In this document: piece by piece, positions 2,353 to 63,775 of the stretch | Numbering within the stretch: position 1 is the stretch's first letter | Layout: each line of letters starts with the position of its first letter | From: Candidatus Anderseniibacteriota bacterium | GTDB lineage: Bacteria > Patescibacteriota > JAUYIX01 | Direction: 5' to 3' | Length of the DNA: 64,000 nucleotides | NCBI GenBank assembly: GCA_046350905.1 | Contig: JAXLZN010000002.1 | Location: forward strand, 65,293-129,292 | Notes under the pieces: model-generated | What the model saw: the letters and a program-made list of their open reading frames with translations, nothing else | Database searches by the model: none | Told to the model about the DNA's origin: nothing | Translations under genes and position numbers: made by a program

Positions 2353-2388
<36 letters not shown>

Positions 2389-2394
2389 TCCCCA

Positions 2395-2429
<35 letters not shown>

Positions 2430-46336: not shown

Positions 46337-48361
46337 ATGCTGTTCAACCTTCGACTCGAGTACCTCGCGATCGGTGTCGCAGCCCTGGCGCTGCTCTTCG
46401 CGGTGCTACTGACAATTCGCATCAAGGCAACCAAGGGTGGCGACCGCTTTATGGAAGAGATTGCACGCGCCATCCGTGAGGGCGCCTTTGCCTACCTCAA
46501 GCGGCAGTACATCGTCGTGGGCGGCCTGACCGTCCTCGGCGCCGCGGCCCTCTACTACTTTGTGAACTGGCAGACCGCGGTGGGCTTTTTGGCAGGCGCG
46601 GTCACCTCGCTCATCGCCGGCCTGATCGGCATGTGGATCGCTGTCCAGGCGAACGTCAAAACGGCCGAGGCGGCTAAGGAAACCCTCGGCAAAGCCCTGC
46701 GCGTGGCGTTCACCGCTGGCACGGTCACCGGCATGGTGGTCGTGGGGCTCGGCTTGCTCGGCGTGGCTGGGTTCTACCTCTGGCTCGGTGACCCGATGCT
46801 GCTGATCGGCTTTGGCTTTGGTGCCTCGCTCGTTTCGCTCTTTGCGCGCGTGGGTGGCGGCATCTACACCAAGGCAGCGGACGTGGGTGCGGACCTGGTC
46901 GGCAAGGTCGAGAAAGGCATTCCAGAAGACGACCCCCGCAACCCGGCGGTCATCGCCGACAACGTGGGCGACAACGTGGGCGACACGGCTGGCATGAGCG
47001 CCGACCTCTTTGAGACGTACGTGGTCACGCTGCTCGCTGCCATGATCTTGGGCGGCACGGTCGCGGTGGCCGGGGTCGGTGGCGTGCTCTACCCGCTGGC
47101 GCTCGGTGCGATCGGCGTGCTGGCTTCGATCATCGGCTCGTTTTTTGTCCGGCTGCGTGGAACCAACATCACGGGCGCTCTCTACAAAGGTGCGGGTGCC
47201 GCGTTGGTGCTGAGCGGCGTTGGCTTTTACGTCTTTAACCGGATGTACGCGGGCAACGACCTCAAGCTCTTTGGCGCCACGCTCGTTGGGTTGGCCGTTA
47301 CGGTCCTGACGATCGTCATCACCAACACCTTTACGGCTCGCAACCGTCGCGCGGTCTACGAGATCGCCAAGGCTTCTGAGACTGGCCCCGGCACCAACAT
47401 CATTGCTGGCCTCGCGGTGGGGTTGCGTTCGACCTGGCCGATGGTGGTTACGATTGTGGCGGCCATCCTGACGGCCTACTACCTGGCGGGCCTGTACGGT
47501 ATCGCGATTGCAGCGGTGGCCATGCTCTCGAGCATGGGCATCATCGTGGCGATCGACGCCTACGGTCCGATCACGGACAACGCGGGCGGGATTGCGGAGA
47601 TGAGCAACCTGCCGGCCAAGGTACGCAGCAAGACCGACGCGCTGGATGCCGTGGGCAACACGACCAAGGCCATCACCAAGGGCTACGCGATTGGCTCGGC
47701 GGCACTCGCCACGCTGGCGCTGTTTGCAGCCTACGCAGACGAGATCCGCGGGTACCTGAGCCAAGCCGGTCTGTCGCACAGCTTTAGCCTGGAGAACCCG
47801 CTCGTGCTGGTTGGACTGTTCATCGGTGCGGCGCTGCCGTTCTTCTTTGCCAGCCAGCTCATGACCGCGGTCGGCAAGGCAGCCTTTACGGTGGTCGAGG
47901 CGGTTCGCCAGCAGTTCAAGACCAAGAAGATTATGGAAGGCATCGACAAGCCGGACTACGGCCAGGTCGTCGACATCGTGACGCGCGCGGCGCAGAAGTA
48001 CCTGGTGCTGCCGGCGGTCGTCGCGGTTGCGGTGGCGCTGCTGGTCGGCTTTGGGCTAGGGCCCGTGGCGCTCGGTGCGCTCCTGATCGGCCTGATCGTG
48101 AGCGGCTTCTTCCTTGCCATCATGATGACGACCGGCGGTGCTGCCTGGGACAACGCCAAGAAGTACGTCGAGGCGGGACAGTTCGGCGGCAAGGGCTCTG
48201 ACGCGCACAAGGCTGCCGTCGTCGGCGACACCGTGGGTGACCCGTTCAAGGACACGGCTGGTCCGGCGCTCAACTCGCTCATCAAGGTGGTCAACACGCT
48301 GGCCGTGATCTTCGCTGGGCAGTTTGCCCTGCACCACTGGCTCGATAAGTTTTTCCGCTAG
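46337..48361 (+). CDS. hppA: membrane-bound proton/sodium-translocating pyrophosphatase
   Basis: Intact 674-aa ORF with GGIYTKAADVGADLVGKVE, DNVGDNVGD and GDTVGDPFKDTAGP. Confidence 0.95.
   Translation: MLFNLRLEYLAIGVAALALLFAVLLTIRIKATKGGDRFMEEIARAIREGAFAYLKRQYIVVGGLTVLGAAALYYFVNWQTAVGFLAGAVTSLIAGLIGMWIAVQANVKTAEAAKETLGKALRVAFTAGTVTGMVVVGLGLLGVAGFYLWLGDPMLLIGFGFGASLVSLFARVGGGIYTKAADVGADLVGKVEKGIPEDDPRNPAVIADNVGDNVGDTAGMSADLFETYVVTLLAAMILGGTVAVAGVGGVLYPLALGAIGVLASIIGSFFVRLRGTNITGALYKGAGAALVLSGVGFYVFNRMYAGNDLKLFGATLVGLAVTVLTIVITNTFTARNRRAVYEIAKASETGPGTNIIAGLAVGLRSTWPMVVTIVAAILTAYYLAGLYGIAIAAVAMLSSMGIIVAIDAYGPITDNAGGIAEMSNLPAKVRSKTDALDAVGNTTKAITKGYAIGSAALATLALFAAYADEIRGYLSQAGLSHSFSLENPLVLVGLFIGAALPFFFASQLMTAVGKAAFTVVEAVRQQFKTKKIMEGIDKPDYGQVVDIVTRAAQKYLVLPAVVAVAVALLVGFGLGPVALGALLIGLIVSGFFLAIMMTTGGAAWDNAKKYVEAGQFGGKGSDAHKAAVVGDTVGDPFKDTAGPALNSLIKVVNTLAVIFAGQFALHHWLDKFFR
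48329..48361. repeat. direct repeat copy 1 (last 10 codons plus stop of hppA)
   Basis: CTGCACCACTGGCTCGATAAGTTTTTCCGCTAG is identical to 57025-57057. Confidence 0.95.
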
Positions 48362-48384
48362 GAACAGCTGGTAGCGCCTAGATA

Positions 48385-49176
48385 ATGGTCCACGACGCAG
48401 AATCTGAAGGCGCACGCGAATCCGCGGCTGAAGCAACCGAGCTCAAGGCTGTCACGGAACGCCTTGCACGTGGCGACGGCGCGCTCGTTGAGGTCAAAGG
48501 CATCCAGTCGACTGTCGGTGAGCGGCTTTGGGTTACTGCGCGGTATGGGCAGGACGTCACGCTGCCCGAGCCCGGTCAGTACTTTCTCAACATCGACCTC
48601 TTTGCCGACCGGAACGGTCGGTTCGAGCCAATCGGCATGCGGGACTTCGAGGTTCGCAACGGCGTCGCTGATGGCAACAAGCAGCGCCACGGCCGCCTGC
48701 CGGAGATGTCCAACGCCAGAGCCGATGAGCGAACCGCGCACGCACGTGCCGACAAAAAATGGGCAACTGGCGAAGGCATCAAGATCTCGGACGAAGACCT
48801 CCTCAACTACGCAGGCAGACTCGGCGGCCTCAAGGGCATGGGCGTCCTGCGCGAGCGCGGCCTCATCCAGTCCGAGAAAGACTGGGGCAAGAAGGTCTAC
48901 CAAGAGCGCGGCCTCGGAACGCTGCTGAACGTCATCGCATTGCTCGTGCTCAGGCAGAAGGGGGTGGAGCGCGTGCAGCTCGGTCACCTCAACAAGGCAT
49001 CCGAAGCACTGTGGCGGCGGTGGGAGAAGTGGCGTTCGCCTGGCTGGCAGCCGAAGTCGCGCGAGGAGGTGCTGGTGGACGAACTCTACAACGATCCGGT
49101 CGTGCGCGCGGCGCTACTCAAAATTGTGCGGGCCACACAGCGCCAGACCGGCTCGCCCCCCGTGATCTGGAATTAG
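48385..49176 (+). CDS. hypothetical protein with GNAT-like motif in the C-terminal half
   Basis: 263-aa ORF. QERGLGTLLNVIALLVLRQKGVERVQL resembles the acetyl-CoA-binding motif A (R/Q-x-x-G-x-G/A). This is weak evidence. Confidence 0.45.
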   Translation: MVHDAESEGARESAAEATELKAVTERLARGDGALVEVKGIQSTVGERLWVTARYGQDVTLPEPGQYFLNIDLFADRNGRFEPIGMRDFEVRNGVADGNKQRHGRLPEMSNARADERTAHARADKKWATGEGIKISDEDLLNYAGRLGGLKGMGVLRERGLIQSEKDWGKKVYQERGLGTLLNVIALLVLRQKGVERVQLGHLNKASEALWRRWEKWRSPGWQPKSREEVLVDELYNDPVVRAALLKIVRATQRQTGSPPVIWN

Positions 49177-49185
49177 TCGCGAAAA

Positions 49186-49974
49186 CTAGTCGCGCGCACT
49201 CTGCTGCCAGAACGAATTGAATAGGGCGCGCAGCATGCCGACGATGTACTCGTCCGTGATGACAACCGCGATGGGCGTCTTGGGTTGCCACAGCACCACC
49301 TTGTTGGCAAAGAGCTGAATCCCGGTGACAAACGGTGTCACTCCACGTAGTACCCGGGTTTCTCGCAGCTCGGCGACGTCCTTTCCCTTGAGGGTCTCCG
49401 TATCGGGGCTCGGCAGGAGCAGCGCATTAATCTTGATGCCCTTGCGCACGCGTGTGGCGATCCAACGCCGTTCCTCCGCCCACGAGATAAAGCCGATAAA
49501 ATCCTTAGCCGAACCCAGGAACTCCGTCGTCCCCTTGGCCTCATCGAGGATCTGGTAGAAGAGCTTGAGAAACTGATCACGCCCCTCCAGCACCTGGACC
49601 TGCGTCGCGGCGCTGCCCTGCCGGTACATGGCGAGCAAGTCGGGGAGTGCCCCCACGATGTCTTGGTCGTAGGTAGCGAGCGACTCACGCTTCTTACGTA
49701 GCAGCTCGCGCACGGTCGTGGGTGGTTCGACCACAAAGGTGCGTGCGTAGCGCCTGCGTTCCGAAAAGCGTGCCAACCCCTTACGCTCGAGGCCCTGGAT
49801 GAGCTTGTACATGTTGGGTCTCGAGATGCCGAGTCCTTTGGAGAGGGCGGCTAGCGACGCCGGCCCCATTGCCAGCGATAGCACGTAGAGCGCCGTTTCC
49901 TGTTCCGTAAGCCCCAGTTCCCGCAGCGAACTGTACAAGAGACGTTTAACTTGGCTTTGGCTGAGCTTGGCCAT
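49186..49974 (-). CDS. TrmB-family transcriptional regulator (paralog 1)
   Basis: 262-aa ORF with an N-terminal winged HTH (LGLTEQETALYVLSLAMGPASLAALSKGLGISRPNMYKLIQGLERKGLA) plus a TrmB-type C-terminal domain. Same architecture as 57894..58709. Confidence 0.8.
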   Translation of the reverse strand: MAKLSQSQVKRLLYSSLRELGLTEQETALYVLSLAMGPASLAALSKGLGISRPNMYKLIQGLERKGLARFSERRRYARTFVVEPPTTVRELLRKKRESLATYDQDIVGALPDLLAMYRQGSAATQVQVLEGRDQFLKLFYQILDEAKGTTEFLGSAKDFIGFISWAEERRWIATRVRKGIKINALLLPSPDTETLKGKDVAELRETRVLRGVTPFVTGIQLFANKVVLWQPKTPIAVVITDEYIVGMLRALFNSFWQQSARD

Positions 49975-50014
49975 GTCTATCTAATATAAGTATATAGATA
50001 GTATACACATATAA

Positions 50015-50073
50015 TAAATAAAGTCAATACAAAGCCAAATAGTATTGACTAATACGCTATAGTGCGCTATACG
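50015..50073 (+). promoter_or_regulatory. shared operator-like block plus candidate promoter (cassette 1)
   Basis: TAAATAAAG-N13-AAATAG-TATTGACT (50015-50050) matches 58781-58815. There is a dyad AGTCAATA/TATTGACT (50022-29/50043-50). TTGACT (50045-50), 17-nt spacer, TATACG (50068-73). A 5'-UTR hairpin CCAAAC/GTTTGG lies at 50082-50100. GACAAAGGAGA lies at 50127-50137. Confidence 0.5.
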
Positions 50074-50143
50074 TACCGGTTCCAAACAAAAGCCGTTTGG
50101 ACCTCTCGCAAGGGAGAATGTTCCTCGACAAAGGAGACTTATC

Positions 50144-50383
50144 ATGAAGATGAACTGGTCAGACATGAAGACCCTGCCCCGACGTTCCGAGAGGGACGGC
50201 GAATACCTCCTTGGTTTTGGTTTCGTGTTTCCCGACGAGTTCGTCGGTGAGGCCGAGGACCCGGAAGCGCCTCCAAGATTCATCAGCGGTGGGTGGACCA
50301 GGGCGGGGGTGACTGTCTTTCGTGATCGCGACGGCAGCCTGTACGCGGTGCCGTGCGAGGTATTCACCGGATGCAGTGGATGA
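50144..50383 (+). CDS. hypothetical 79-aa protein (first cistron of cassette 1)
   Basis: ATG lies 6 nt after AAGGAGA. MKMNWSDMKTLPRRSERDGEYLLGFGFVFPDEF...GCSG. No family recognised. Confidence 0.55.
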   Translation: MKMNWSDMKTLPRRSERDGEYLLGFGFVFPDEFVGEAEDPEAPPRFISGGWTRAGVTVFRDRDGSLYAVPCEVFTGCSG

Positions 50384-50411
50384 GCCTCTGGGTTAGACAG
50401 ATTTCCTGTGC

Positions 50412-50512
50412 GCAACGCAGCTGCGCAATGCTGCGACCGTTCGGCCAACATACATCGTTTTGGTTGGCCCTCCGTCAGAGCTGCCCTTGTCCGGCGGCTC
50501 TGACGGGGAAAC
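50412..50512 (+). promoter_or_regulatory. conserved three-hairpin RNA element, copy A (candidate cis-regulatory RNA)
   Basis: Aligns with 60550-60643. P1 at 50416-21/50430-35, P2 at 50443-49/50463-69, P3 at 50472-85/50493-506. Ends GGGGAAAC, 4 nt before the ATG at 50517. Confidence 0.6.
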
Positions 50513-50516
50513 ACAC

Positions 50517-51983
50517 ATGACCAAGCAACCAACCATCAAGAAATTAAAGAAAGTTGTCGTACTCGACACTATTTTTTTCTACCCCGAGCACCGGGCGGTC
50601 TTGGAGCAGCTCGCGGATGAAGTCATCGAGTACCCCTCGAGCCTGCCGGAGTCGCTCGAACGGCAGTACGTCGACAACCCGGAGCTATTCCGCAACGTTC
50701 GTTGCTACACGGAGCTCGGCGCCAACAATTCCTCGCTCCAGCTCCTCATGAACCGCATCGATGGCGCCGACTGTGTCATCAGCTGCTGGACGTGCATTCC
50801 TGACGAGATTCTCAAGCTCAACCCGCAGCTCAAGCTGATCGTCTTCTGGACGCACGAGAAGGAGCACCGCCTCAACCTCAAGCTCGCCGAGCAGTTCGGC
50901 ATCACCGTGACAAACATTCCCGACTACGGCACTGACGCGGTCGCGGAGGTCGTCTTTGCGGGACTGCTCGAGGTGCTCGCCAAGAACTACGTTACGCACA
51001 CGCTGCCGCAGAACGAGGAAAGCCTCGCCCTCACGGTCATGCACGAGCTGCTCCGCCGCCGCCGCATGCTCGACCGCAACGAGAAGTACACGCGGGCTGG
51101 GAAGTTCGTGCACCACTTCCACAAGCTCGGCAAGATCACCTTTGATCCCGGGCAGCGGACGCTCGATGAACTTATTCCAGAACGGCTGCTCGCGCGCGCC
51201 GGCGTAGCGCTCATCGGACAGCAGCCGTACGCACATCTCCGCACGTGGTTGCGAGCCTTTGAGGTGGTTGTCGATGAGCTGCCTGTGTTTGACGCGAGCA
51301 AGGCGGAGTTCTACCGCACGCTCGCCCGAAATGACTTCGTCGTGATCAGCAGCAATGAGCTCGATCCGAAGCTCGTGCAGAAAATCAATCTGCTCGCGGG
51401 TGTCAAGGTCGTCGACCTTGCGCAGCTCAAGACGATCGACTGGAGCGTCGCGGGCAAACGCTTTGGCGTGCTCGGTCTCGGCCGCATTGGTTCCAAAGTG
51501 GCGCGGGTCGCGCGCGACGTTGGATTTGAAGTGCAGTTCGCCGCGCGGGTCCCTGCTGCTCGTAGCGACCACCGCCACGTCTCAGTCAGTGAGCTGCTCG
51601 CAACTTCTGACGTGCTCTCGGTGCACCTTCCGGCGCACAAAGCCGACAACTTTTTGTCGGCCGATAAGCTCGCGCTCCTCAAGAAGGGCGGCATCTTCAT
51701 CAACACCGCTGACGGCAACATCACCGACACCGCCAAGCTGACCGAGCTCCTCAGCGCGAACCACGTGCTGGCCTACCTCGACGTCTACCCCGGCCTGCCG
51801 CGCAAGGATGTGTTCGGCTTGCCAATGGAGGACAAAGCGGACTGGAAACTCAAGGCTGCGCTCCCGCGCCACGTGCTCGCCTACCGCGCGGGCTGGAAGA
51901 CGCAGGAATCAATTCGAGTCAAAACCTTTGAGCTGCTCGGCCACATGGTCGACTACCTCACCTCGCACCCCCATGCCCACTGA
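50517..51983 (+). CDS. atypical D-isomer-specific 2-hydroxyacid dehydrogenase-family protein with large internal insertion
   Basis: Catalytic-domain pattern (..LKLIVFW..FGITVTNIPDYGTDAVAEVVFAGLL) and NAD fold GVLGLGRIGSKVARVARDVGFEV. More than 100 extra residues separate them. INTADGN replaces the family NxxRG motif. Confidence 0.7.
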   Translation: MTKQPTIKKLKKVVVLDTIFFYPEHRAVLEQLADEVIEYPSSLPESLERQYVDNPELFRNVRCYTELGANNSSLQLLMNRIDGADCVISCWTCIPDEILKLNPQLKLIVFWTHEKEHRLNLKLAEQFGITVTNIPDYGTDAVAEVVFAGLLEVLAKNYVTHTLPQNEESLALTVMHELLRRRRMLDRNEKYTRAGKFVHHFHKLGKITFDPGQRTLDELIPERLLARAGVALIGQQPYAHLRTWLRAFEVVVDELPVFDASKAEFYRTLARNDFVVISSNELDPKLVQKINLLAGVKVVDLAQLKTIDWSVAGKRFGVLGLGRIGSKVARVARDVGFEVQFAARVPAARSDHRHVSVSELLATSDVLSVHLPAHKADNFLSADKLALLKKGGIFINTADGNITDTAKLTELLSANHVLAYLDVYPGLPRKDVFGLPMEDKADWKLKAALPRHVLAYRAGWKTQESIRVKTFELLGHMVDYLTSHPHAH

Positions 51984-52842
51984 ACGCCAAACGCGAGCAA
52001 CCTTCAACCGGCTCAAGCGGTTCTACGACGCGAGCTGGGACCCCAAACGTAAGACGCTCCACGTCGGTCTGTTCCGACAAGCGGACGACTCCCTGCAGCG
52101 TGCCTACGCGAACGCGACGAGCTACCTGCTCGAGCTCGTCAACGAGCAGCGGCGCATCACCGCGCAATCGGTTGTGCTCGACGTTGGCTGCGGTACAGGA
52201 CAAACGTTGCTCGACCTGTGTGCACGCGTTGGCTGCCGTGGCGTCGGCCTCGATCTGAGCGACGCGCAGGTTTCGCACGCGCGGGCTGACCTCCGCGCCC
52301 GGAATGCGCTGCGAGTCAAGCGCAACCTGCCAAAGCTGCGCTGCACGTTCATCCGCGGCAGTGCGAGCGTGCTCACGCGCCACGTCGGGGCCCGGCCGGA
52401 GTTCACGCACGTGATCAGCCAGGACGCGCTCTTCCTCGCAGCCAACAAGCAGCGCGCGTTCCAGGGCATCGCTACGGTACTTGTCCCAGGCGGCGTGGTC
52501 GGCATCGCAGACTTCCTGCAGCAGGCCTCTGCCGCACGCTACAGTTCGCCCGCCCGTCGCGCGATCTTCAAGGTGGTCAACTGGCAGGAGGGTTTGTCGT
52601 TCGAGCGGTACCAGCGTGCGCTACGTACAGTCGGACTCGACGTCGTCCACGCCGAGCAACGCGATCGCGACATGATCAAGACGTACACGCTGCTCGTCCG
52701 GCAGCTCGCAGCGTTCATCGACCGTCACCCAACCTACCGCACGCTGCGCGAACGGTACCAGAGCATCGTTGCTGCGGTGCGCGCAGGCAAGATGGGGTGG
52801 GCGCTCTGCATCGCGCGCAAGCCGCTCACCGCACGCCAATGA
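51973..52842 (+). CDS. class I SAM-dependent methyltransferase
   Basis: ATG at 51973 overlaps the upstream stop by 11 nt. VLDVGCGTGQTLLDL (motif I), GVGLDLS, and LVPGGVVGIADF (post-II). The N-terminal HVGLF....SLQRA is typical of small-molecule MTases. Confidence 0.8.
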   Translation: MPTERQTRATFNRLKRFYDASWDPKRKTLHVGLFRQADDSLQRAYANATSYLLELVNEQRRITAQSVVLDVGCGTGQTLLDLCARVGCRGVGLDLSDAQVSHARADLRARNALRVKRNLPKLRCTFIRGSASVLTRHVGARPEFTHVISQDALFLAANKQRAFQGIATVLVPGGVVGIADFLQQASAARYSSPARRAIFKVVNWQEGLSFERYQRALRTVGLDVVHAEQRDRDMIKTYTLLVRQLAAFIDRHPTYRTLRERYQSIVAAVRAGKMGWALCIARKPLTARQ

Positions 52843-53582
52843 AGTACGTCATCGGCAACTGGAAGATGAACCCGACCGAGCTGCCCCGCGCGCTCGAACT
52901 GATCCGCGCGACCGAGGCAGCAATCCCGGCCGGCACACCGCGCGGCTGCGTAGCGATCGCGGCACCGTTTGTGTACCTCCACCCGCTTGCCTGCGAGACC
53001 GCTGCCGTCGCACTCGCCGCGCAGGACACCTTCTGGGATCAGGCTGGCGCGTACACTGGGCAGGTCTCGCCCGCCATGCTGAAGGGTCTGGGCGTGCGGT
53101 ACGTCTTGATCGGCCACAGCGAACGCCGCACGCACGCATTTGAAACCGACGCACACATCACGCATAAGGTGCGCGCTGCTCTCGACGCCAATCTACGCGT
53201 GATCCTCGCGGTCGGCTCGCGCGCTCGATCAGAAGCAGCGGTCCTGCGTGACATCCGTCGGCAGCTGCGGGTGCTCGACGTACTCGGCAGCGGTCGTGCG
53301 CAGGGTCGCCGGGATTTGCTCATCGCGTACGAACCGCTCGTGGCGATCGGCACCGGGCAGGCGGCACCAGTCGACCACGTGCGTCGCGTCGCTGCAGAAA
53401 TCAGCAGACTGTCCGGGGCACCCGTGCTGTACGGCGGCAGCATCAGCCGCAAGAACGCGAGCACGTACCTCGCGCTGCCGGAGCTTGCTGGCGTGCTCGT
53501 CGGGAGCGCGAGCCTGCGTGCGCGCGAGTTCGCTGCAATTATCCAGGCTGCCGAGCAACTCTCCCACCACCATGACTCCTAA
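52839..53582 (+). CDS. tpiA: triosephosphate isomerase
   Basis: ATGA overlap with the methyltransferase stop. IGNWKMN, IGHSERR, YEPLVAIGTG and YGGS motifs. The loop-6 Trp of the usual EPxWAIGTG is Val here. Confidence 0.8.
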   Translation: MKYVIGNWKMNPTELPRALELIRATEAAIPAGTPRGCVAIAAPFVYLHPLACETAAVALAAQDTFWDQAGAYTGQVSPAMLKGLGVRYVLIGHSERRTHAFETDAHITHKVRAALDANLRVILAVGSRARSEAAVLRDIRRQLRVLDVLGSGRAQGRRDLLIAYEPLVAIGTGQAAPVDHVRRVAAEISRLSGAPVLYGGSISRKNASTYLALPELAGVLVGSASLRAREFAAIIQAAEQLSHHHDS

Positions 53583-54222
53583 GAAAATCATTCTCGCCGG
53601 CACCAAGCCGCACTCCATCGCACGCGTCATTGGGCGCCACCTGCACGAGCAAGGCTGGGACGTGTGGCTCTACAGTCGTCACGCCAAGCGGGTCGAGCAC
53701 ACTCGCTGGCACGAGCGTCGCTGCGACGTAACGAAATCGGCTGACATTGCACGCCTCCTCTCAGAGGTTGGTACGCCGCAGGCTGTGGTGTTCAGCGCTG
53801 ATTCGGATGGCCACGGCACCATCCAACGTATTTCTGAACGGCGGCTCCGTGCGCTCATCGATGCCAAAGTGACGGGCAGCATTCTCTTGACCAAGCGCGT
53901 GCTCGCACATTCGCGCAAGCCGGTTTCACTCGTGTGGCTGATCGGCAAGATTGGGGTCAAGCCACAGGACCTCTTCCTGTACGGCGTCGTCAACGCGGCA
54001 GTCGTTGCCTTCGTAGATCAGCTCAAAGCGCTGGGTCGAACGGTGCGACCGTACATGCTGCCGCTCGGGGTGATCACGCCATCGACGCTCGGTGATGCGT
54101 ACCTGCGCCAGAATCCCGGGAAGCAGCTTGCGACGGATTCGCCGGTGAACGTCGCACGTTTCGTCGCTCGCATCCTCCGGGGGGGGGTACGCATCCGGTA
54201 CCGTACAAAGGGATCAATCTGA
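53572..54222 (+). CDS. short-chain dehydrogenase/Rossmann-like protein with degenerate SDR motifs
   Basis: ATG at 53572 overlaps the tpiA stop by 11 nt. KKIILAGTKPHSIARVIG sits in place of TGxxxGxG. LYGVVNAAV sits in place of YxxxK (no Lys). Confidence 0.55.
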   Translation: MTPKKIILAGTKPHSIARVIGRHLHEQGWDVWLYSRHAKRVEHTRWHERRCDVTKSADIARLLSEVGTPQAVVFSADSDGHGTIQRISERRLRALIDAKVTGSILLTKRVLAHSRKPVSLVWLIGKIGVKPQDLFLYGVVNAAVVAFVDQLKALGRTVRPYMLPLGVITPSTLGDAYLRQNPGKQLATDSPVNVARFVARILRGGVRIRYRTKGSI

Positions 54223-54325
54223 GATGGTGTAGCACCGCTCGCAATCCGTGATTGCCGTTGCTTGGTCGGGATGTGACCTGACCAGGAAACGGAAATTACG
54301 GAACGTCCTTCACAAGGGAGAAAAC

Positions 54326-54658
54326 ATGAAAAATACTGTGCAGCTCGGGTACCTGCTCCTCCTCATGCTCTCTTTTTTCAACGCGATATTCGGCTCCCAA
54401 CAGCCAACGCTTAGCAGGCTGCTCTGGGCTCTCTTCTACAGCACGTTGGTTATTGCATTCGTGCTGAAACCGCCCGCAGACGATGGGTATGTCGGTGCCG
54501 CCCGAATCGTATACGCGTTTGCGTTACTGATGATGGCTGGATCATGGATTGGTCGAAGTCCAACCCCCATCACGTCAATGTGGAGTGCCATTACTTTTGT
54601 TGTAGCTGCCGACAACTGGCTGCTCTGGAGTAAGTGCCGGACCGAGAGCGATCAGTAA
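54326..54658 (+). CDS. hypothetical small membrane protein (3-4 TM helices)
   Basis: ATG lies 6 nt after AAGGGAGAA. MKNTVQLGYLLLLMLSFFNAIF.. GC is lower than in the upstream operon. Confidence 0.6.
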   Translation: MKNTVQLGYLLLLMLSFFNAIFGSQQPTLSRLLWALFYSTLVIAFVLKPPADDGYVGAARIVYAFALLMMAGSWIGRSPTPITSMWSAITFVVAADNWLLWSKCRTESDQ

Positions 54659-54682
54659 CGTCTTGAAATCTGACGTCGCAGT

Positions 54683-54724
54683 GCCGCCTAGTAGGTCTTC
54701 GGGCTGAACGGCGGCTTCTCTTTG
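54683..54724 (+). terminator. terminator-like hairpin after cassette 1
   Basis: GCCGCC (54683-88) pairs with GGCGGC (54710-15), followed by TTCTCTTT. Confidence 0.45.
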
Positions 54725-54811
54725 GCAAGAACTATGGGGAGCCACCTCCACGCGTGCAGCTGTCCATGCCAACACCCTCATGGTGATCTTCGAGATCGGC
54801 TGGACAGCGGC

Positions 54812-56308
54812 CTACAAACCGCTGCGGCCAAACTTCTTCTCAGATTCGTCGAACTTCCTCTTGAGCTCTTCTGAGCGAAAGAATACATGGCGAGCAGGGT
54901 CGTAGAGAAACCCCATCTGCTCGAACCCCTCGGGCGTGGCGCGTGGATCGCCTGGCGGTAAGCGAAACACTGCTGCCATCTGCTCGAGTGTGTAACGAGG
55001 AATCCAGGTGGCGGGCTGCTCTTGCAGCTGCGACGTTAGCGCGAGCATCCGTTTGCTGACCGAGGCGACTGTATCGTCCGCTGAAATGGGAACCCGCAGA
55101 GAGGCCTCAATGCGCTGCCCGACTTCTTCGACCACTCCTATCCGTCGCACGATGGCACGGTTCGCTTGTGAGAGGTGGTCCCAGCCGATGGTGATCGCAC
55201 CCTCGTTGCCCACGTTCTTAGCGTTGGCTGTGGACATGAGCGTCTCGATGTTCTTGTCGAAGAGCTCCTCTACCGCTGGTATGAGGGGCGGCTCAATCAC
55301 TTCATGAATGAGGCTGCGTTCGGTGAGCAATGTACTACCGGATAGCTCAATGGGCTGCACAGCACGCATGGACGGCGACAGAGGTTCGACCTGGTCCGAC
55401 CCTTCAGCCTCGTCGATGGGCTCTACGGCGCTCTCATTGGGCCAAGGCTCGCGGTTGTCAAAGTAAAGGCCGCCATCGCGCACGGCCTGTTTGGCATCGC
55501 TGCCTTTCATGCTCGGCGCCCTATTGAAGAGCATGACTAGGTCGAACTTCTCCGTCCGCTCCTTGAACTGACTTAACGTTTCTGGCAGGAGGGTAACGAC
55601 GTAGTCCACGCCGCCATGCTTAAAGTGGAGCGTCCTGTGGGTTGTATCGTAGCGGGCCTGCCGGTCGTAGCTGCTCTTGATGCGGTCAACCAGAGCCGCG
55701 ACGTGGCGGTCATCAAGTACGGGATCAACCAGCGTGATGTCTCGGGCACCTGCCAGAATCGCCAGCTCGACGTCGTCCGCTGAACCAAAGTACACGGCCC
55801 GCCGGTAGTGCTCCGGCTCACCTGTAGCAGTGGCATGCTCACTGATCATTTGAGCAAAATGCAGCTTGTCGCGCTTGATCGTGTCCGCAAAGCCAATTGA
55901 GTGGACCTGTAAGTTTCTGGCTAGCACCTGTTCTGCAGGTGGGAGTTTCTCGACTTGGCGCTCGAATTCACGCCGGGTAAGCTCGGCGTTCGCATACATA
56001 TCGGCGAAATCGACGATGTTTTGGTCAAGCGCTGCCCGGTCGACGTGCGCTGCATCAAGCTCGTTCATCGCCGCGTGTGTCTCTATGGCACGCTCGAGCA
56101 CTCCGTTGAGGGTCTCATCGTCGATCTGCGGATGACCGGCCTTCCAACGTTCGGCAGAAACGGTTTGACGGTTCGTAGCCTCCTCAGTCTCGAGCTGCGC
56201 AGGTTGTTCGCCAGGCTGCGACGGCGGCAGGATGCCCTCGTCCTCTCGAGGATCTGGGGCAGGTGCATTCTCTTTCTTAGTGGCCATGCCTGTATGGTAC
56301 TCCTCCAT
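54812..56308 (-). CDS. hypothetical 498-aa protein (acidic N-terminus; possible Rossmann-like core)
   Basis: Intact ORF in a lower-GC region. AVYFGSADDVELAILAGARDITLVDP resembles a nucleotide/SAM-binding beta-alpha-beta strand. No family recognised. Confidence 0.55.
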   Translation of the reverse strand: MEEYHTGMATKKENAPAPDPREDEGILPPSQPGEQPAQLETEEATNRQTVSAERWKAGHPQIDDETLNGVLERAIETHAAMNELDAAHVDRAALDQNIVDFADMYANAELTRREFERQVEKLPPAEQVLARNLQVHSIGFADTIKRDKLHFAQMISEHATATGEPEHYRRAVYFGSADDVELAILAGARDITLVDPVLDDRHVAALVDRIKSSYDRQARYDTTHRTLHFKHGGVDYVVTLLPETLSQFKERTEKFDLVMLFNRAPSMKGSDAKQAVRDGGLYFDNREPWPNESAVEPIDEAEGSDQVEPLSPSMRAVQPIELSGSTLLTERSLIHEVIEPPLIPAVEELFDKNIETLMSTANAKNVGNEGAITIGWDHLSQANRAIVRRIGVVEEVGQRIEASLRVPISADDTVASVSKRMLALTSQLQEQPATWIPRYTLEQMAAVFRLPPGDPRATPEGFEQMGFLYDPARHVFFRSEELKRKFDESEKKFGRSGL

Positions 56309-56516
56309 TCTGCTTGCGCGTGAGCTTCTTTCAACCTTCCGGCAGTACTCTTTACATTTCGCGCAGCATGAACAAGTTCGCTCAGCACCTCGAATAACGC
56401 GGGCCCCTTTACGTATTCACGCAATATGGTTTGATGCGTGCATGGGTGTGGAAACTCCCGGACCAGGCGAAGCTGGGAACGCAGACAAATCAATTGTACG
56501 AGAGCGCGAGGCGGCC

Positions 56517-56969
56517 ATGCAGCGCTACGCCGGCCGCACGTTCAAGACTGAGAAGGGATGGACCTACACGTACGATGACCGCGGGCGTACGACGCGACAG
56601 CAGGCTGAAACCGGACACACGCACGCCCCGCAAGATCTCACGGTTTTTGTCGAAATGAACGTAGAAGAGAAACTATCCTTTGCTGCCGCAATGCATGCAG
56701 AAAATGACGACCCGGCATCAAAGGAAAAGGTTTACGTCGTTGAACGAGGCTCCGACAATCAGCCTCGGATCGTGGAATCGTGGGCAGATATTACCGACCC
56801 ATCGAAGCTATCTATTGCGATTGTGCGTGATGGCAAAATGCTGAGGTTCAAACCGGTCACGCTTCGGCCTAGGGTTGGTTCGTACGTCTTTGATACGAGG
56901 CTATTTCGAGACCGGCACGGCAAGTCGTACAAAGAGAGGCACTTGGGGCACAGAGTTACTGAAGTATAG
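56517..56969 (+). CDS. hypothetical 150-aa protein (alternative start 56442)
   Basis: MQRYAGRTFKTEKGWTYTYDDRG..., with GAGG 5 nt upstream of the ATG. No family recognised. Confidence 0.45.
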   Translation: MQRYAGRTFKTEKGWTYTYDDRGRTTRQQAETGHTHAPQDLTVFVEMNVEEKLSFAAAMHAENDDPASKEKVYVVERGSDNQPRIVESWADITDPSKLSIAIVRDGKMLRFKPVTLRPRVGSYVFDTRLFRDRHGKSYKERHLGHRVTEV

Positions 56970-57020
56970 GTAGTAGAAAAAGTCTTCGGTTAGCTGATGC
57001 TGGGCCGAATATGCTCTACG

Positions 57021-57057
57021 TTCGCTGCACCACTGGCTCGATAAGTTTTTCCGCTAG
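57021..57057. repeat. direct repeat copy 2: orphan hppA 3' fragment
   Basis: 57025-57057 is identical to 48329-48361. TTCGCTG (57021-27) matches 48311-17 if 14 nt (GGCAGTTTGCCCTG) are deleted. There is no hppA body upstream. Confidence 0.95.
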
Positions 57058-57081
57058 ACTGCAGGATCTCGAAGAGCGAAC

Positions 57082-57107
57082 AGAGCGCGGCCGGTAGGCC
57101 GCGCTCT
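57082..57107. terminator. strong hairpin (probable original hppA terminator; also directly follows the stop of the convergent 57111 gene)
   Basis: AGAGCGCGGCC-GGTA-GGCCGCGCTCT, an 11-bp perfect stem. The T-tract is weak on both strands. Confidence 0.5.
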
Positions 57108-57110
57108 TGC

Positions 57111-57884
57111 CTATTGAGCGCTGTCTGTTTGCGTAGAGGATGGGGCCCAGGTAAATCGAACATTTGCGTCGTAGTAGTCCAGCGAACCGTGGCCGGAGTA
57201 CTCCCACCCTTCCGTCGCTAGGATGCCGCGGGGAGATGGCGTAAGGGTGTGCGAGGGTCCTTCCAAAGAATCATCCAGTCCCAAGCCAATTTTCAGCATA
57301 GCCTTATCGTAGTAGGCATCTAAGAACTTTGGCATGGTGAGTTCGCTCAATCGATAATCACCGATAGGACCCTTCACTGGCCCCGGCTTTTGTTCAAAAT
57401 CGGCAATTGCGCTTTTAAGCTCCTCAGGGGGGTTTCCAGAAAAGATTCGTTCCACGTATTCTTTTGCGAGTTCGGGTAACTTGTCATATCGCCCTTTGAT
57501 TGACGGCTCTCTGGAAACAAGGGCCCAGCTTCGTCTTACGGAGTCGTTGAAATCGTCACGTGAAACAAACTCACCGCCGTAGTATGCCTGCTCACCTTTT
57601 GGAACATGCCTCAACACAAGCTTGGAAAGTCTTTCCGCAGTAAGCGGCGCTCCCTCCTCGTCATGTTGAACCCTGAAAATGAGAACGAGGTCATTCTCCT
57701 TGGCGACATCAATGTCTCTCTTGGAGAAGGGTAATGGAGGAATATCGCGTTCAGGAATCTCGATTTTGAGAAACTCAGAAACTTGCTTAGGCCCGATAAC
57801 ATCCCTCCCGAGTATACTTTCCGCGTATTCCAGGTTGGCCTTTTCGTTCTTGCCTTCTGGATTGATGCTTCCGATTTCGCGCAC
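57111..57884 (-). CDS. hypothetical 257-aa protein, co-oriented 9 nt downstream of TrmB paralog 2
   Basis: Intact ORF with low GC. No family recognised. Confidence 0.55.
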   Translation of the reverse strand: MREIGSINPEGKNEKANLEYAESILGRDVIGPKQVSEFLKIEIPERDIPPLPFSKRDIDVAKENDLVLIFRVQHDEEGAPLTAERLSKLVLRHVPKGEQAYYGGEFVSRDDFNDSVRRSWALVSREPSIKGRYDKLPELAKEYVERIFSGNPPEELKSAIADFEQKPGPVKGPIGDYRLSELTMPKFLDAYYDKAMLKIGLGLDDSLEGPSHTLTPSPRGILATEGWEYSGHGSLDYYDANVRFTWAPSSTQTDSAQ

Positions 57885-57893
57885 GGCTTATTG

Positions 57894-58709
57894 TTAGGTC
57901 TTACTGCTTGAGGATACTCCAGCCCACGCCAGCTCAAAGATCATGACCATCATGTCGTGAATGGTTTTGTCCTCGATGATCGTAGCAGCAAACTGAGGAC
58001 CGCTGAAGTTGATTATCGAGACCTTGTTGATACCATAGACGGTAATGTCGCTCTTATACGGAAAGAGCTTCTGCGGCACGTGCCGGACTTTTGGCCAAAT
58101 CTTCTTTGAGTAGCCTGCGTAGATGGTCTTGCTGTAGTCCACATCGACTTCGGTGTAGGGCAGCACGGCTCGGGCTGTGATCGACAGCTTCTCTTTCCTA
58201 CGGATGTACGTGTGAATGAACTTCTCGGGCAGGAACTTCAGCAGATCCGCAGTGTTCGCAAATGCCAGCATTTCGTAGGGCCCCTTCCCTGATACGTGGT
58301 CCTCGAAGACCTTCAGGACGCCCTCTTTACCCTCAAAGAACCTGACAATCGGCTTGTTAGCGGCGTGCGAGTAGAGCCCCTCCAGCGTAGGGAGGAGAGC
58401 CTGCATGCTCTCGAGGTCTCGCTTGGCGAGGGTGATACGAGACTGCGCATGCCGTTCTAGGCTCTTGGGGTTCTCAACCTGGTAGAAGAGCTTGTTGCGC
58501 TTCTCAAGCTCAGAAACGAGTCCTTTGACGGCCAGGTTCTCCAGCACTTTGTAGGTAGTGCTGCGGTTGAGCTTGGTGAGTTCCGCAACCTTGGATGGGT
58601 AGGCCCCACCTGCTTGGAGGAGGGCAGCGTAGACAGCAGCCTCCTTTCCAGCCAGCCCGGCTTTCCTGAGCTGTTTTTGGATGTTGCTGTCTTCAGTAGC
58701 CATCTGCAA
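57894..58709 (-). CDS. TrmB-family transcriptional regulator (paralog 2)
   Basis: 271-aa ORF with a wHTH (AGLAGKEAAVYAALLQAGGAYPSKVAELTKLNRSTTYKVLENLAVKGLV) and a C-terminal domain colinear with 49186..49974. Confidence 0.8.
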   Translation of the reverse strand: MQMATEDSNIQKQLRKAGLAGKEAAVYAALLQAGGAYPSKVAELTKLNRSTTYKVLENLAVKGLVSELEKRNKLFYQVENPKSLERHAQSRITLAKRDLESMQALLPTLEGLYSHAANKPIVRFFEGKEGVLKVFEDHVSGKGPYEMLAFANTADLLKFLPEKFIHTYIRRKEKLSITARAVLPYTEVDVDYSKTIYAGYSKKIWPKVRHVPQKLFPYKSDITVYGINKVSIINFSGPQFAATIIEDKTIHDMMVMIFELAWAGVSSSSKT

Positions 58710-58780
58710 ACCAGTCTACGCTGTATTACCAATTTTGTCAATTCTAACGAACAAAATGAAAGTAGAATGAAATATTTGTT

Positions 58781-58836
58781 TAAATAAAGCCATAAACAGC
58801 AAATAGATTGGCATTGTAGAAGCACAAAATATGAAT
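58781..58836 (+). promoter_or_regulatory. shared operator-like block plus candidate promoter (cassette 2)
   Basis: TAAATAAAG-N11-AAATAG-ATTGGCA (58781-58813). TTGGCA (58808-13), 17-nt spacer, ATGAAT (58831-36). A 5'-UTR hairpin GTTTCC/GGAAAC lies at 58855-70. GACAAAGGAGA lies at 58880-90. Confidence 0.5.
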
Positions 58837-58899
58837 TCCGAGCTACAAAGATCTGTTTCCAAAGGGAAACAAATTCATTGACAAAGGAGATAGAACGCC

Positions 58900-60519
58900 A
58901 TGGCTAAGCCCAAGGTGCTGTTCGTCAAGGCCGCGCAGGAGAGCGATGCTACCTGGGACCCGATCCGGATGAGCCCTAACCAGGGCCTCTGGTACCTGGC
59001 CTCGGAGCTGCGCGAGCAGGGCTACTACGTGCGTCTCATCGATGAGACCACGCGCCACGGCGGACTCCACAAGCACTCCATGGTGCACCGCACGATCAAG
59101 CTGGCCACCAAGGCTGGCGAGGTCGACGAGGTGTACGAGGTGCCTGTGGTGACGCCGTTCGCCGATCATATCCGGAGCAAGATGGAAGACTTCGAGCGGC
59201 TCTCCCCTGGAGAGTTCGTCGAGAAGCACTCCGCCTTCCGGATTCCCGGCGAGATCAACCGCACGGTCGTCCGGACCGGCAACCCCATCGAGCACACGCT
59301 CGAGGACATCGAGCGGGAGCTGGCCAGCGGAGACGCGGTGATCGTGGGCATTCCGTTGCCTGCCACCTCGAACTACGTTTCGGCCACTCGGCTCGGCAAG
59401 GCCATCAAGGACACCTTCGGCCAGCACGTGAAGGTGATCTACGGTGGGCAGCACATCACGGCGATGCCGGGGCAGTTCCTCAAGGACAACCCCTGGGTCG
59501 ACGTGGCCGTGTGCGGGGATGCCGTGACGACGATCGAGCGGGCGCTCCAGTGCGCGCTCGATGGGACCACCAAGGTCGTCTGGAGGATGTGCGGGGATAA
59601 GACGGCGAGGCAGGAGGACATTTCCTGCTACCCGCTGCTCGACCCCACGCTCCTCGAGGAGAACGAGTACCCGACGCGCCCCAACCATACGTTCGATACG
59701 GATGGGCGCAGGTGGGTGGACTTCATGACCTCCAAGGGTTGCGGGCTGAGCTGCGAGTTCTGCGGCGTCAGCGGCATTCCCAAGGAGGAGAAGAAGTACT
59801 CGGCGATTCCGCTCGATAAGCTCGAGCAGCAGCTCTTGCTGTTCAAGCGGGCGGACATCTCCGAGCTCGTGATCCAGGACGACGCGGTCCTGTCGAACAA
59901 GCTTCTCCCGGGGGCAGTCGCGCTCTTCAAAAAGCACGGCTTCTCCTGGCAGAACAACGGCGGCATCGAGTACGAGAGGATCGACGATGCAACCGTGGAG
60001 CAGTGGAGCGCGTACAACCGCTCGGGCGAGGGTCGCACCACCGCGCTCTACGTGCCCTTCAATCCACGCGAGTGGAACGAGGGGCAGAGCGCTGGCGTGA
60101 CCCAGACCCAGCGGCGGCCCCACGTGGTCGAGCTCCTCAAGAAGCTGCGCGAGTCTGGCTGCTACGTGTTCTCTTCGGAGATCATCGGGCAACCGACCGA
60201 GCGGCGCGAGGAGTCCGGGCGCGATACGGCCCGGTACATCGACCTGGTGCGTGAGGGCTACATCGATCAGGCCCTCACGTTTTCCGCCACAGTCCTGCCG
60301 GGCACCAAGTGGTCATGGAAGCACGGCGCCCTCGTGGTCAGTAGCATTGACTACGTCGGGTACAGCCTGTTCACCACGCACCACCGCACCTACTGCATCT
60401 CCGACCCGCGCGAGATCGAGCGCTGGGTGGTTGAGCGGAACAAGACGCTCAACGAGGTGCAGCGCTCCTACGCCTGGGGCACGGCGTTTCCAAACGTCGG
60501 GCCGCAGGTGGGTGAGTGA
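58900..60519 (+). CDS. B12-binding-domain radical SAM enzyme (class B-like)
   Basis: Intact 539-aa ORF. N-terminal Rossmann-like cobalamin-binding-type region (VLFVKAA...GLWYLASELREQGYYVRLID..., ..VIVGIPL..., VIYGGQHITAMP). Radical SAM CxxxCxxC (GCGLSCEFCG, 59740-59763). Confidence 0.8.
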   Translation: MAKPKVLFVKAAQESDATWDPIRMSPNQGLWYLASELREQGYYVRLIDETTRHGGLHKHSMVHRTIKLATKAGEVDEVYEVPVVTPFADHIRSKMEDFERLSPGEFVEKHSAFRIPGEINRTVVRTGNPIEHTLEDIERELASGDAVIVGIPLPATSNYVSATRLGKAIKDTFGQHVKVIYGGQHITAMPGQFLKDNPWVDVAVCGDAVTTIERALQCALDGTTKVVWRMCGDKTARQEDISCYPLLDPTLLEENEYPTRPNHTFDTDGRRWVDFMTSKGCGLSCEFCGVSGIPKEEKKYSAIPLDKLEQQLLLFKRADISELVIQDDAVLSNKLLPGAVALFKKHGFSWQNNGGIEYERIDDATVEQWSAYNRSGEGRTTALYVPFNPREWNEGQSAGVTQTQRRPHVVELLKKLRESGCYVFSSEIIGQPTERREESGRDTARYIDLVREGYIDQALTFSATVLPGTKWSWKHGALVVSSIDYVGYSLFTTHHRTYCISDPREIERWVVERNKTLNEVQRSYAWGTAFPNVGPQVGE

Positions 60520-60549
60520 CGTGCCACCGAGGATGTCGCATCAGCGACC

Positions 60550-60643
60550 GCAACGCAGCTGCGCAGCGCTGCGACATGGCCAACTCATTGATTAGTTGGC
60601 CCTCCGTCAGAGCCGCTCTTCTCGGCGGTTCTGACGGGGAAAC
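60550..60643 (+). promoter_or_regulatory. conserved three-hairpin RNA element, copy B
   Basis: P1 at 60554-59/60568-73, P2 at 60578-84/60595-601, P3 at 60604-16/60625-37, ending GGGGAAAC. Lies between the radical SAM stop and the 106-aa ORF. Confidence 0.6.
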
Positions 60644-60673
60644 CCGATCGTACATTAGAGAGGAGAAACCAAA

Positions 60674-60994
60674 ATGAACTCTGCCGAAAAGTTCGTGCGT
60701 TTGTCCGAGGCCAATTTGATCACCGAGTGCACCCAGATCAAGACCTCGTTCCACGACCTCAAGCGGCTGACCATCAACACGGTCGGCATGATGCGTATCC
60801 AGTTCCAGGGCGACGTGCCCCGGATGCGCACGCAGAACTGGGATGGTAGCTACGACGTGGACATCTACTCCGATAGCGTCGTGACCATTCACGACCAGCA
60901 CGGAGTCCACTGCTACGTCGTGACCTGGTCCAAGCGGAGCGACAAGCTGCCGACCACGCACATCCTGCCGCGCCTCCCGGAGGTCGAGGACTAG
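60674..60994 (+). CDS. hypothetical 106-aa protein (last cistron of cassette 2)
   Basis: ATG lies 8 nt after GAGAGGAGAAA. MNSAEKFVRLSEANLITECTQIKTSFHDL... No family recognised. Confidence 0.6.
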   Translation: MNSAEKFVRLSEANLITECTQIKTSFHDLKRLTINTVGMMRIQFQGDVPRMRTQNWDGSYDVDIYSDSVVTIHDQHGVHCYVVTWSKRSDKLPTTHILPRLPEVED

Positions 60995-61001
60995 CGGCAC
61001 T

Positions 61002-61033
61002 AAGGGCGCCCGGAAAGATTTCCGTGCGCCCTT
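61002..61033 (+). terminator. terminator hairpin after cassette 2
   Basis: AAGGGCGC...GCGCCCTT with an inner CGGAA/TTCCG stem, followed by TAATGTT. Confidence 0.55.
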
Positions 61034-61166
61034 TAATGTTGAGTTCGCAACCTGAGAATGTGACTTGACTATTTGGCGCAGCCGGCTACACTGCGGTCAA
61101 AGGTTCCCGCCTGATGACAAGAGCTCCTGGGCTCTCCCGCAAGGGTAGTCGGGCGGGTCATTCGTA

Positions 61167-61799
61167 TTAACTGACTTCCAGAGCGTCGATAGGTACGTTG
61201 CCCAACGCTCGCATCGGCCGTTCTTCTCCACGCGACAAACTGACATATCGTGCCCATGACACATAATCGGCGATCTGGCCGTTGAGATCGGCCATCGTAC
61301 TGTGGAAGAACACGTGAAACGGTTTTCCTGTCGTTTTCAAGACCGGCTTAATCGCTTTCAACAATGCACGTTGCTCTTTCCGGATAAGCGTCTTGTCGAA
61401 GATAACCACTATTCTTTTTAGCGGTGTCGTTGACCAAATCTGTAGCGTTCGAGTAAGCAGTGCACGGCCAAATCGAGCATACATAGACACGGGGTCCCGC
61501 AAATTAGTGGGGAGCAGCCGTTTCTGAGCGTGCGCAACGCAGCACCTAATTCCGTGTGTACTGTTGATAGTGGAGAAGACTTGATCGCGCACTAATTGCG
61601 CATCTGGTGCGGCATGAAAAAAGGGAACGTCGATGCCACGCGACAGAAGCCAGTACCGCAGCTGTAGCAACGGACGCGCCGATGCGATGGGCTGCATGGT
61701 CGACATAGATCCCATCACAAAGTACTTGGTGCCAAGCTCAGAAAAATCGAAGTTGCCAGACTCGTCAATGAAAACGAATAACGTGCCTTGTGTGTTCAC
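61167..61799 (-). CDS. DUF3800-family protein
   Basis: 210-aa ORF with low GC. N-terminal LFVFIDESGNFDF matches the DUF3800 IDESG signature. Confidence 0.65.
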   Translation of the reverse strand: MNTQGTLFVFIDESGNFDFSELGTKYFVMGSMSTMQPIASARPLLQLRYWLLSRGIDVPFFHAAPDAQLVRDQVFSTINSTHGIRCCVAHAQKRLLPTNLRDPVSMYARFGRALLTRTLQIWSTTPLKRIVVIFDKTLIRKEQRALLKAIKPVLKTTGKPFHVFFHSTMADLNGQIADYVSWARYVSLSRGEERPMRALGNVPIDALEVS

Positions 61800-61885
61800 C
61801 GGTAGAGGCTACTGAATCCGACCTTACGAGAAGTTAAAGTCTAGAGTTTGTTCGTACAGAAAGAACGCGCTAGCCTCTGGCGGGC

Positions 61886-63214: not shown

Positions 63215-63775
63215 ATGGCAAAGCTCGTCAAAGAGATCATGACTACCGAGGTCGTCAGCGTGCAGCCAGGCACGACGATCGCGAAGTTGGCAGCCGCAAT
63301 GGTGGACCACAACCTGACCGGCGTGCCGGTCGTGCGCAAGGGCGCTGTAGTTGGCATGGTCACCGACAGCGACCTGGTCGCGCAGAAGTCCAACATCCAC
63401 GCGCCCCAGTTTTTGTCGGCGCTGCACTCGTTCATCATGCTGCGCTCGAGCAAGTCGGTCGAGGAGGAGATCAAGAAGCTGCTTGGCAGCAAAGCTGAGG
63501 ACATCATGACTTCGCCGATCGTGAGCGTGCGGTCGGGGGAGACGATCGCCAAGCTCGCCACGCTGATGGTCGAGACCAAGGCCAACCCCATCCCCGTCGT
63601 CGACAACGGTGCGCTCGTCGGCATCGTCAGCCGCCACGACCTGCTCAAGCTCATCGCCGACGAGGCCACCGCCAAGCCTGCACCGACCCCCGCACCCGGG
63701 AGCGAACCCGCCGCCGGACCCAGCAAGCCGGGCCCGAGCAAGCCGCAGGCTAAGCCCGCCAAGCCTAGCAAGTAG
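63215..63775 (+). CDS. CBS-pair domain protein with Pro/Ala/Lys-rich tail
   Basis: Two CBS repeats (IMTTEVVSVQPGTTIAKLAAAMVDHNLTGVPVV..; IMTSPIVSVRSGETIAKLATLMVETKANPIPVV..). Tail AKPAPTPAPGSEPAAGPSKPGPSKPQAKPAKPSK. Confidence 0.85.
   Translation: MAKLVKEIMTTEVVSVQPGTTIAKLAAAMVDHNLTGVPVVRKGAVVGMVTDSDLVAQKSNIHAPQFLSALHSFIMLRSSKSVEEEIKKLLGSKAEDIMTSPIVSVRSGETIAKLATLMVETKANPIPVVDNGALVGIVSRHDLLKLIADEATAKPAPTPAPGSEPAAGPSKPGPSKPQAKPAKPSK

Follow-up and report, generated by a model that had tools for sequence, protein, structure and literature searches.

A perfect duplication of the hppA 3' end within a 13.5-kb insertion between hppA and tig in a Candidatus Anderseniibacteriota bacterium

We analysed a 64,000-nt stretch of DNA from a Candidatus Anderseniibacteriota bacterium (Patescibacteriota; contig JAXLZN010000002.1, positions 65,293 to 129,292; hereafter the window), and found that the gene hppA is followed by 13.5 kb of DNA that is inserted relative to seven relatives. 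The first part of this DNA (block A) is bracketed by a perfect 33-nt repeat of the hppA 3' end, carries accessory cargo and has no recombinase match; a second block (block B) lies between it and tig. On balance, we consider it probable that the blocks arose by serial insertions at a hot spot between hppA and tig, with block A as the latest, brought in on a circle with the hppA end by Campbell-type insertion, in the manner of a cis-mobilizable element (CIME). An earlier reading of the letters of this DNA (the original prediction) had noted the repeat and proposed that block A was inserted behind hppA. Its observation was confirmed and its interpretation is partly supported. Taken together, we regard the locus as a genomic-island scar of known kind in an unusual host.

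The repeated hppA end and its junctions

The hppA gene (46337-48361, plus strand) is intact and encodes a H+/Na+ membrane pyrophosphatase of 674 aa (Pfam H_PPase, E 6e-251). An NCBI protein from a Candidatus Andersenbacteria metagenome-assembled genome (MAG) matches it at 100% identity, indicating that the window is metagenome-assembled. The window contains exactly two copies of the 33-mer at the end of the gene, CTGCACCACTGGCTCGATAAGTTTTTCCGCTAG. As originally noted, they lie at 48329-48361 and 57025-57057, and both are on the plus strand. No additional copy was found in the window at up to 3 mismatches, and none of 100 shuffled sequences gave a match (0/100). The 33-mer is the longest exact direct repeat of the window, and the runner-up is a 20-mer common to two tRNA-Pro genes.

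The identity between the two copies stops exactly at the hppA stop codon, and hppA is full length, a geometry shared with integrations into gene 3' ends. The second copy has no hppA body upstream, as had been stated, and an in-frame stop lies 10 codons upstream of the repeat. Thus, block A is indeed bracketed by a duplicated gene end, with direct repeats derived from the 3' end of a target gene that is intact at one junction. The original prediction also extended the homology to TTCGCTG across a 14-nt gap. This sequence is present, but it adds only 4 matched bases (TTCG), and TTCG occurs in 21% of 60-nt windows of this sequence. We therefore rejected the extension as real homology at this 21% chance expectation.

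The junctions were compared with an independent assembly, the Logan contigs of run SRR26348421, which are built on a k=31 de Bruijn graph. Three Logan contigs are 100% identical to the window: L172 (48332-49335), L171 (49417-56671, confirming the interior of block A) and L173 (57028-59007). L172 starts at 48332 and L173 ends at 57028, each exactly k-1 = 30 nt inside a copy of the 33-mer. These breaks show that the 33-mer precedes two different sequences in the reads and is a real branch point. L172 continues into block A and L173 into block B, so both right-hand junctions are present in the independent assembly. An assembly artefact should have left the repeat or its junctions absent there; the raw data do contain the repeat and the two right-hand junctions.

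At the 33-mer, the k=31 graph is entered by two edges and left by two, and it does not pair them, that is, it does not give the left/right pairing that distinguishes an integrated from an episomal block. The assembler could have merged two real molecules, a chromosome with the order hppA-33mer-B-tig and an 8,696-bp circular episome with a 33-mer of its own. In favour of this, the window stems from metagenome assembly, and 33 is a default k value of SPAdes. However, 33 nt is far below the normal read length and the final k of common assemblers, and spanning reads should resolve such a repeat. We consider this mis-pairing highly improbable, and even if it were true, the biology would not change: the hppA end would still be the shared attachment (att) site of an element.

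Comparison of the locus with its relatives

Seven relatives with hppA 79-91% identical (L001, L161, L162, L163, L167/L168, L169 and L170) were recovered via a protein database and contig look-ups. No closer relatives were found in JGI metagenome contigs, where hppA identity reached 60% at most. The gene order NusA-hppA-tig-CBS was found in all seven relatives (7/7), followed by genes for an AP (apurinic/apyrimidinic) endonuclease and uracil-DNA glycosylase (UDG) where the contig continues. In six of the seven, the hppA stop is 0-31 nt from the tig start, with no hairpin between them. In the window, tig and the CBS-domain gene follow block B, and by this synteny they are the ancestral right-hand neighbours of hppA.

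The adjacency of hppA and tig in the relatives indicates that, compared with them, the entire stretch 48362-61885 (13.5 kb) is an insertion. Blocks A and B are both absent from the seven relatives, and the second 33-mer copy lies within the inserted DNA. The insert is therefore larger than the 8.7 kb originally proposed, and the relatives lack 13.5 kb rather than exactly the DNA bracketed by the repeat. The empty site expected by the original prediction, with the hppA stop directly followed by the hairpin region 57058-57110, was absent from the relatives.

The hairpin itself, with an 11-bp stem and a 4-nt loop behind the second copy (57082-57107), is real. It had been taken for the old terminator of hppA, displaced by the insertion. 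We found 3 nt between it and the stop codon of the block B gene 57111-57884 (minus strand); no hairpin follows the first copy, where ORF A1 starts after 24 nt. Since the relatives have no hairpin between hppA and tig and the hairpin lies so close to this stop, it is best read as the terminator of the block B gene, and not as an ancestral hppA terminator. Thus, of the proposal that block A was inserted between hppA and its terminator, the insertion directly behind an intact hppA holds, but the terminator does not.

The junction between hppA and tig is occupied differently in L001, where about 600 nt with a 131-aa ORF separate the two genes. This different insert of about 0.6 kb counts for a hot spot. 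At the other end of block B, the hexamer CGCTAG, identical to the final 6 nt of hppA, lies 12 nt upstream of the tig start. It may be a weak trace of an older scar, possibly an eroded third att copy; the hexamer was noticed post hoc and is present in 0.8% of 40-nt windows. Searches with blastn-short and local alignments for a third repeat copy near tig found nothing of at least 11 nt.

The genomes L161-L170 have a second variable spot in the same conserved neighbourhood, the gap between a UPF0102 gene and NusA. Its content differs between genomes: it may be empty or contain a cupin gene, CopC/cupredoxin genes, CTP synthase with ORFans, or an ABC transporter plus a pair of TrmB regulators.

Mobile-element hallmarks and routes of insertion

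None of the 14 probable genes of 48362-61885 has a recombinase, transposase, phage or conjugation match in Pfam, PHROGs or NCBIfam. This agrees with the original observation that no recombinase is recognisable in block A. The only PHROGs match was a dehydrogenase domain, and PADLOC gave no match on 8 ORFs of the insert. No integrase was found beside the repeat among these ORFs. A hidden recombinase among the ORFans was considered and rejected: no hidden Markov model (HMM) or PDB sequence match was obtained, the latter searched with the block A ORFans A1, A8 and A9. A six-frame search of the window with regular expressions for common tyrosine and serine recombinase motifs returned nothing credible; this is a weak test, and window positions 1-45000 were HMM-scanned for a sample of ORFs only.

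The block ends carry no terminal inverted repeats, and with no transposase in the insert they do not fit a transposon or insertion sequence. A 33-nt duplication is also far longer than usual target-site duplications. A prophage or phage satellite is likewise not indicated: the 33-mer and the block proteins have nothing similar in viral contigs, and plasmid and phage DNA gave no match. Viral contigs, plasmids, phages and 167 other hppA loci yielded no helper integrative and conjugative element (ICE) or integrative and mobilizable element (IME) for the same att site. The repeat region has no Rfam match.

Elsewhere in the window, the 16S rRNA gene (1809-4173, minus strand) is split by a group I intron (3384-3689) with a LAGLIDADG homing endonuclease ORF (2808-3392), and 16S rRNA genes split by group I introns are common in CPR (Candidate Phyla Radiation, here used for Patescibacteria) bacteria. 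A 224-aa ORF between tRNA genes (33587-34261, plus strand) is homing-endonuclease-like (LYWAEGRK motif) and has no Pfam match.

Among the closest known parallels are CIMEs, which in Streptococcus thermophilus sit in the 3' end of fda. A CIME keeps attL and attR and lacks the genes for integration and transfer (PMC5704250), and block A with its two att-like repeats shows the same combination. Flanking direct repeats derived from the 3' end of a protein-coding gene, an intact target gene, cargo without an integrase and a second inserted block alongside, as in accretion, are all shared. Integrase-less elements flanked by att sites, and their accretion at one site, have been described (PMC5704250; 10.1101/2020.12.28.424599). 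Unlike CIMEs, block A has no known cognate ICE, IME or integrase for its site, it shows no decayed genes for recombination or conjugation, and the second block has no clear outer repeat. Moreover, the host is a CPR bacterium, for which no such elements were found described in the literature searched.

Other systems share part of this picture. The tycheposons of Prochlorococcus (10.1101/2020.12.28.424599) also occupy streamlined genomes and carry metabolic modules, and their serial integration at one site pushes older elements inward and leaves partial target-gene copies between neighbours. In contrast to the present locus, they carry tyrosine recombinases and replication genes and mostly target tRNA genes, none of which applies here. 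The H47 island of E. coli (PMC5426353) is similarly small, flanked by direct repeats and without its own site-specific recombinase; its excision was shown by experiment, whereas mobility is here only inferred, and its host and cargo are unrelated. In the Hyphomicrobiaceae MAG locus L055, a second copy of the hppA 3' end (about 68 nt) lies 1.3 kb downstream of the first (2543-2610 and 3884-3953). Between the L055 copies is a small cargo without an integrase, made up of a BrnT toxin gene and two small ORFs. However, this repeat is imperfect and extends into the terminator region with a terminator-like hairpin, the phylum is unrelated, and the insert is ten times smaller than here.

From the repeat and the synteny, we infer an order of events that involves a circular intermediate and a recombining enzyme. 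Block B (57058 to about 61867) would have entered first, directly behind the hppA stop, giving an hppA-B-tig stage at which hppA and the convergent 257-aa gene would share the hairpin at 57082-57107. A circle with block A (48362-57024) and one 33-nt hppA end would then have recombined with the chromosomal hppA end by a single crossover. This would leave an intact hppA at the left junction and the displaced 33-nt copy at the right one. The perfect duplication would point to a recent event, or to a circle that a sibling genome in the same population supplied. The enzyme would not be insert-encoded: it may have been a site-specific integrase that acted in trans or has since been lost, which would make block A CIME-like, or host recombination may have acted on the short identity.

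Several observations weigh against this reading. No integrase, excisionase or recognisable remnant lies within the 13.5 kb, and no dyad symmetry like that of integrase core sites is obvious in the 33-mer. None of the relatives has the intermediate hppA-B-tig or block A alone. Of the 124 hppA loci that extend at least 3 kb downstream, L055 is the only other one in which the hppA end is repeated, which indicates that this end does not serve as a recurrent att site. Finally, a patch of low GC content at third codon positions (GC3) spans the second copy, from A7-A9 into B1, and a structured leader motif occurs in both blocks. These last two features hint that blocks A and B are not fully independent.

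Both count for a composite island, in which blocks A and B would have accreted at the hppA end of a donor (attL-A-attI-B-attR) and the 13.5 kb moved as a whole, the inner 33-mer being the middle att site. The two motif copies are about 88% identical, and the motif was found nowhere else in the window or in the loci of the seven relatives; low GC3 values extend across the second copy. The CGCTAG before tig could be the outer attR, and tandem transfer of a CIME with an ICE has been documented (PMC5704250). However, the outer right repeat would then be 6 nt only, against an inner repeat of 33 nt that is perfect. A donor with such an arrangement was not found, and a recombinase is lacking here as well. 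We consider this transfer as a single unit unlikely, though a real possibility.

The lack of a recombinase and the rarity of the repeat among the 124 loci also agree with an accident of repair or replication. Block A would then have entered a break close to the hppA end by copying or capture, for instance through template switching or through end joining after a staggered break, with the 33 nt re-copied as a by-product. Integrase-less islands with short direct repeats are able to recombine without RecA or a site-specific recombinase (H47, PMC5426353). But the duplication ends exactly at the stop and hppA is intact, which is more easily explained by selection on an att-type event than by a random break. 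The window shows no source copy of block A, and the claimed TTCG microhomology is at chance level. An accident of this kind appears quite unlikely to us.

Block A might also be an active, integrase-independent cassette that alternates between an 8.7-kb circle and the integrated form via the 33-nt hppA end, the enzyme being a host function or a new recombinase among A1, A8 and A9. TrmB-regulated modules might then circulate in this way among Patescibacteria. We think it very unlikely that block A is such a cassette.

Genes of the insert

The features of the locus are listed in Table 1. We counted 9 probable genes in block A, where 11 ORFs had been given, and the Logan gene calls agree on the starts. 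Homologues of the operon genes occur CPR-wide at about 50-64% identity. The module of TrmB, 2-hydroxyacid dehydrogenase (2-Hacid_dh), methyltransferase and triosephosphate isomerase (TIM) genes is conserved in other CPR lineages at 50-64% identity, and the TrmB/2-Hacid_dh arrangement was also found in L164, L165 and L166. Among the module matches listed, none is on a contig that matches in size the 0.5-1 Mb contigs of the relatives, which indicates that this module is accessory in the clade.

Table 1. Coordinates of the repeat, the two blocks and neighbouring features in the window
Feature	Position	Strand	Remarks
Repeat copy 1, attL-like	48329-48361	+	Final 10 codons and stop of hppA
Block A	48362-57024		8,663 bp, 9 probable genes, bracketed by the repeat
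A1, 263-aa ORFan	48385-49176	+	Start 24 nt past the hppA stop
TrmB-family regulator 1	49186-49974	-	Pfam TrmB, E 7e-10; divergent from the operon
Structured leader motif, copy A (about 105 nt)	50409-50514	+	Directly upstream of the dehydrogenase operon; fold z -4.6
Operon of 4 genes, overlapping stops and starts	50517-54222	+	Pfam, NCBIfam, L171 gene calls
2-Hydroxyacid-dehydrogenase-like (2-Hacid_dh)	50517-51983	+	Operon gene 1
Methyltransferase	51973-52842	+	Operon gene 2
Triosephosphate isomerase (TIM)	52839-53582	+	Operon gene 3
Short-chain dehydrogenase	53572-54222	+	Operon gene 4
Small membrane protein, 110 aa	54326-54658	+	Translation; L171 gene call
A8, 498-aa two-domain protein	54812-56308	-	No library match
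A9, ORFan of about 150 aa	56517-56969	+	Right edge of block A; start from Logan gene call
Repeat copy 2, attR- or attI-like	57025-57057	+	No hppA body upstream
Block B	57058 to about 61867		About 4.8 kb, 5 genes
Hairpin	57082-57107		11-bp stem, 4-nt loop; 3' of copy 2
B1, 257-aa ORFan	57111-57884	-	Block B
TrmB regulator 2	57894-58703	-	27% identical to TrmB regulator 1
B12-binding radical SAM protein	58900-60519	+	Block B
Structured leader motif, copy B	60547-60645	+	Just upstream of the 106-aa ORF; fold z -5.0
106-aa ORF	60674-60994	+	Block B
DUF3800 protein	61167-61799	-	Block B
CGCTAG	61868-61873	+	Final 6 nt of hppA; 12 nt upstream of the tig start
tig, trigger factor	61886-63190	+	Pfam; synteny
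CBS-domain gene	63215-63775	+	Pfam; synteny

In the distant CPR genome L166 (7573-13118), a TrmB/2-Hacid_dh/methyltransferase module lies directly beside tig, within the same NusA...tig...AP-endonuclease...UDG neighbourhood. The module and this neighbourhood thus occur together more than once.

The ORFan A1 has no match in Pfam, PHROG, NCBIfam, PADLOC or PDB and one homologue among 5.8 billion proteins. Its AlphaFold model, at a pLDDT (predicted local distance difference test) of 43, was unusable for a fold search. A1 occupies the position that tig has in the nusA-hppA transcription unit of the relatives, with no terminator between hppA and A1, while tig now lies behind the divergent DUF3800 gene with 86 nt of upstream sequence, in which a consensus promoter was not found. 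The two domains of A8 have stand-alone homologues of about 190 aa, and both are also found inside giant proteins.

The GC3 values of the insert form a mosaic that lies partly far below the core genes, which counts for serial insertion. Core genes range from 0.82 to 0.88, the first six genes of block A from 0.72 to 0.81, its last three from 0.60 to 0.68, and block B from 0.53 to 0.91. The originally noted near-host GC content is thus borne out for most of block A.

The leader motif is predicted to fold into three consecutive hairpins, one of 16 bp reaching into the ribosome-binding region, and Rfam gave no match for it. The motif could be either a cis-regulatory leader or a repeat specific to the island. 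The idea of a conserved riboswitch belonging to the dehydrogenase operon was rejected, since the motif is absent upstream of the L164 and L166 homologues and from the loci of the relatives.

CPR genomes are small, and little is known about the route by which they gain accessory metabolism. The locus described here is a clean, datable example, in which a conserved NusA-hppA-tig-CBS backbone was broken in one lineage by 13.5 kb that brought in two TrmB-regulated modules, including triosephosphate isomerase. The scar at the junction suggests that recombination at the hppA end, without an element-encoded integrase, accounts for at least the last step. If integrated and circular forms both exist, the locus would make integrase-less gene mobility tractable in an uncultured phylum; otherwise, it would be an ordinary decayed genomic island.

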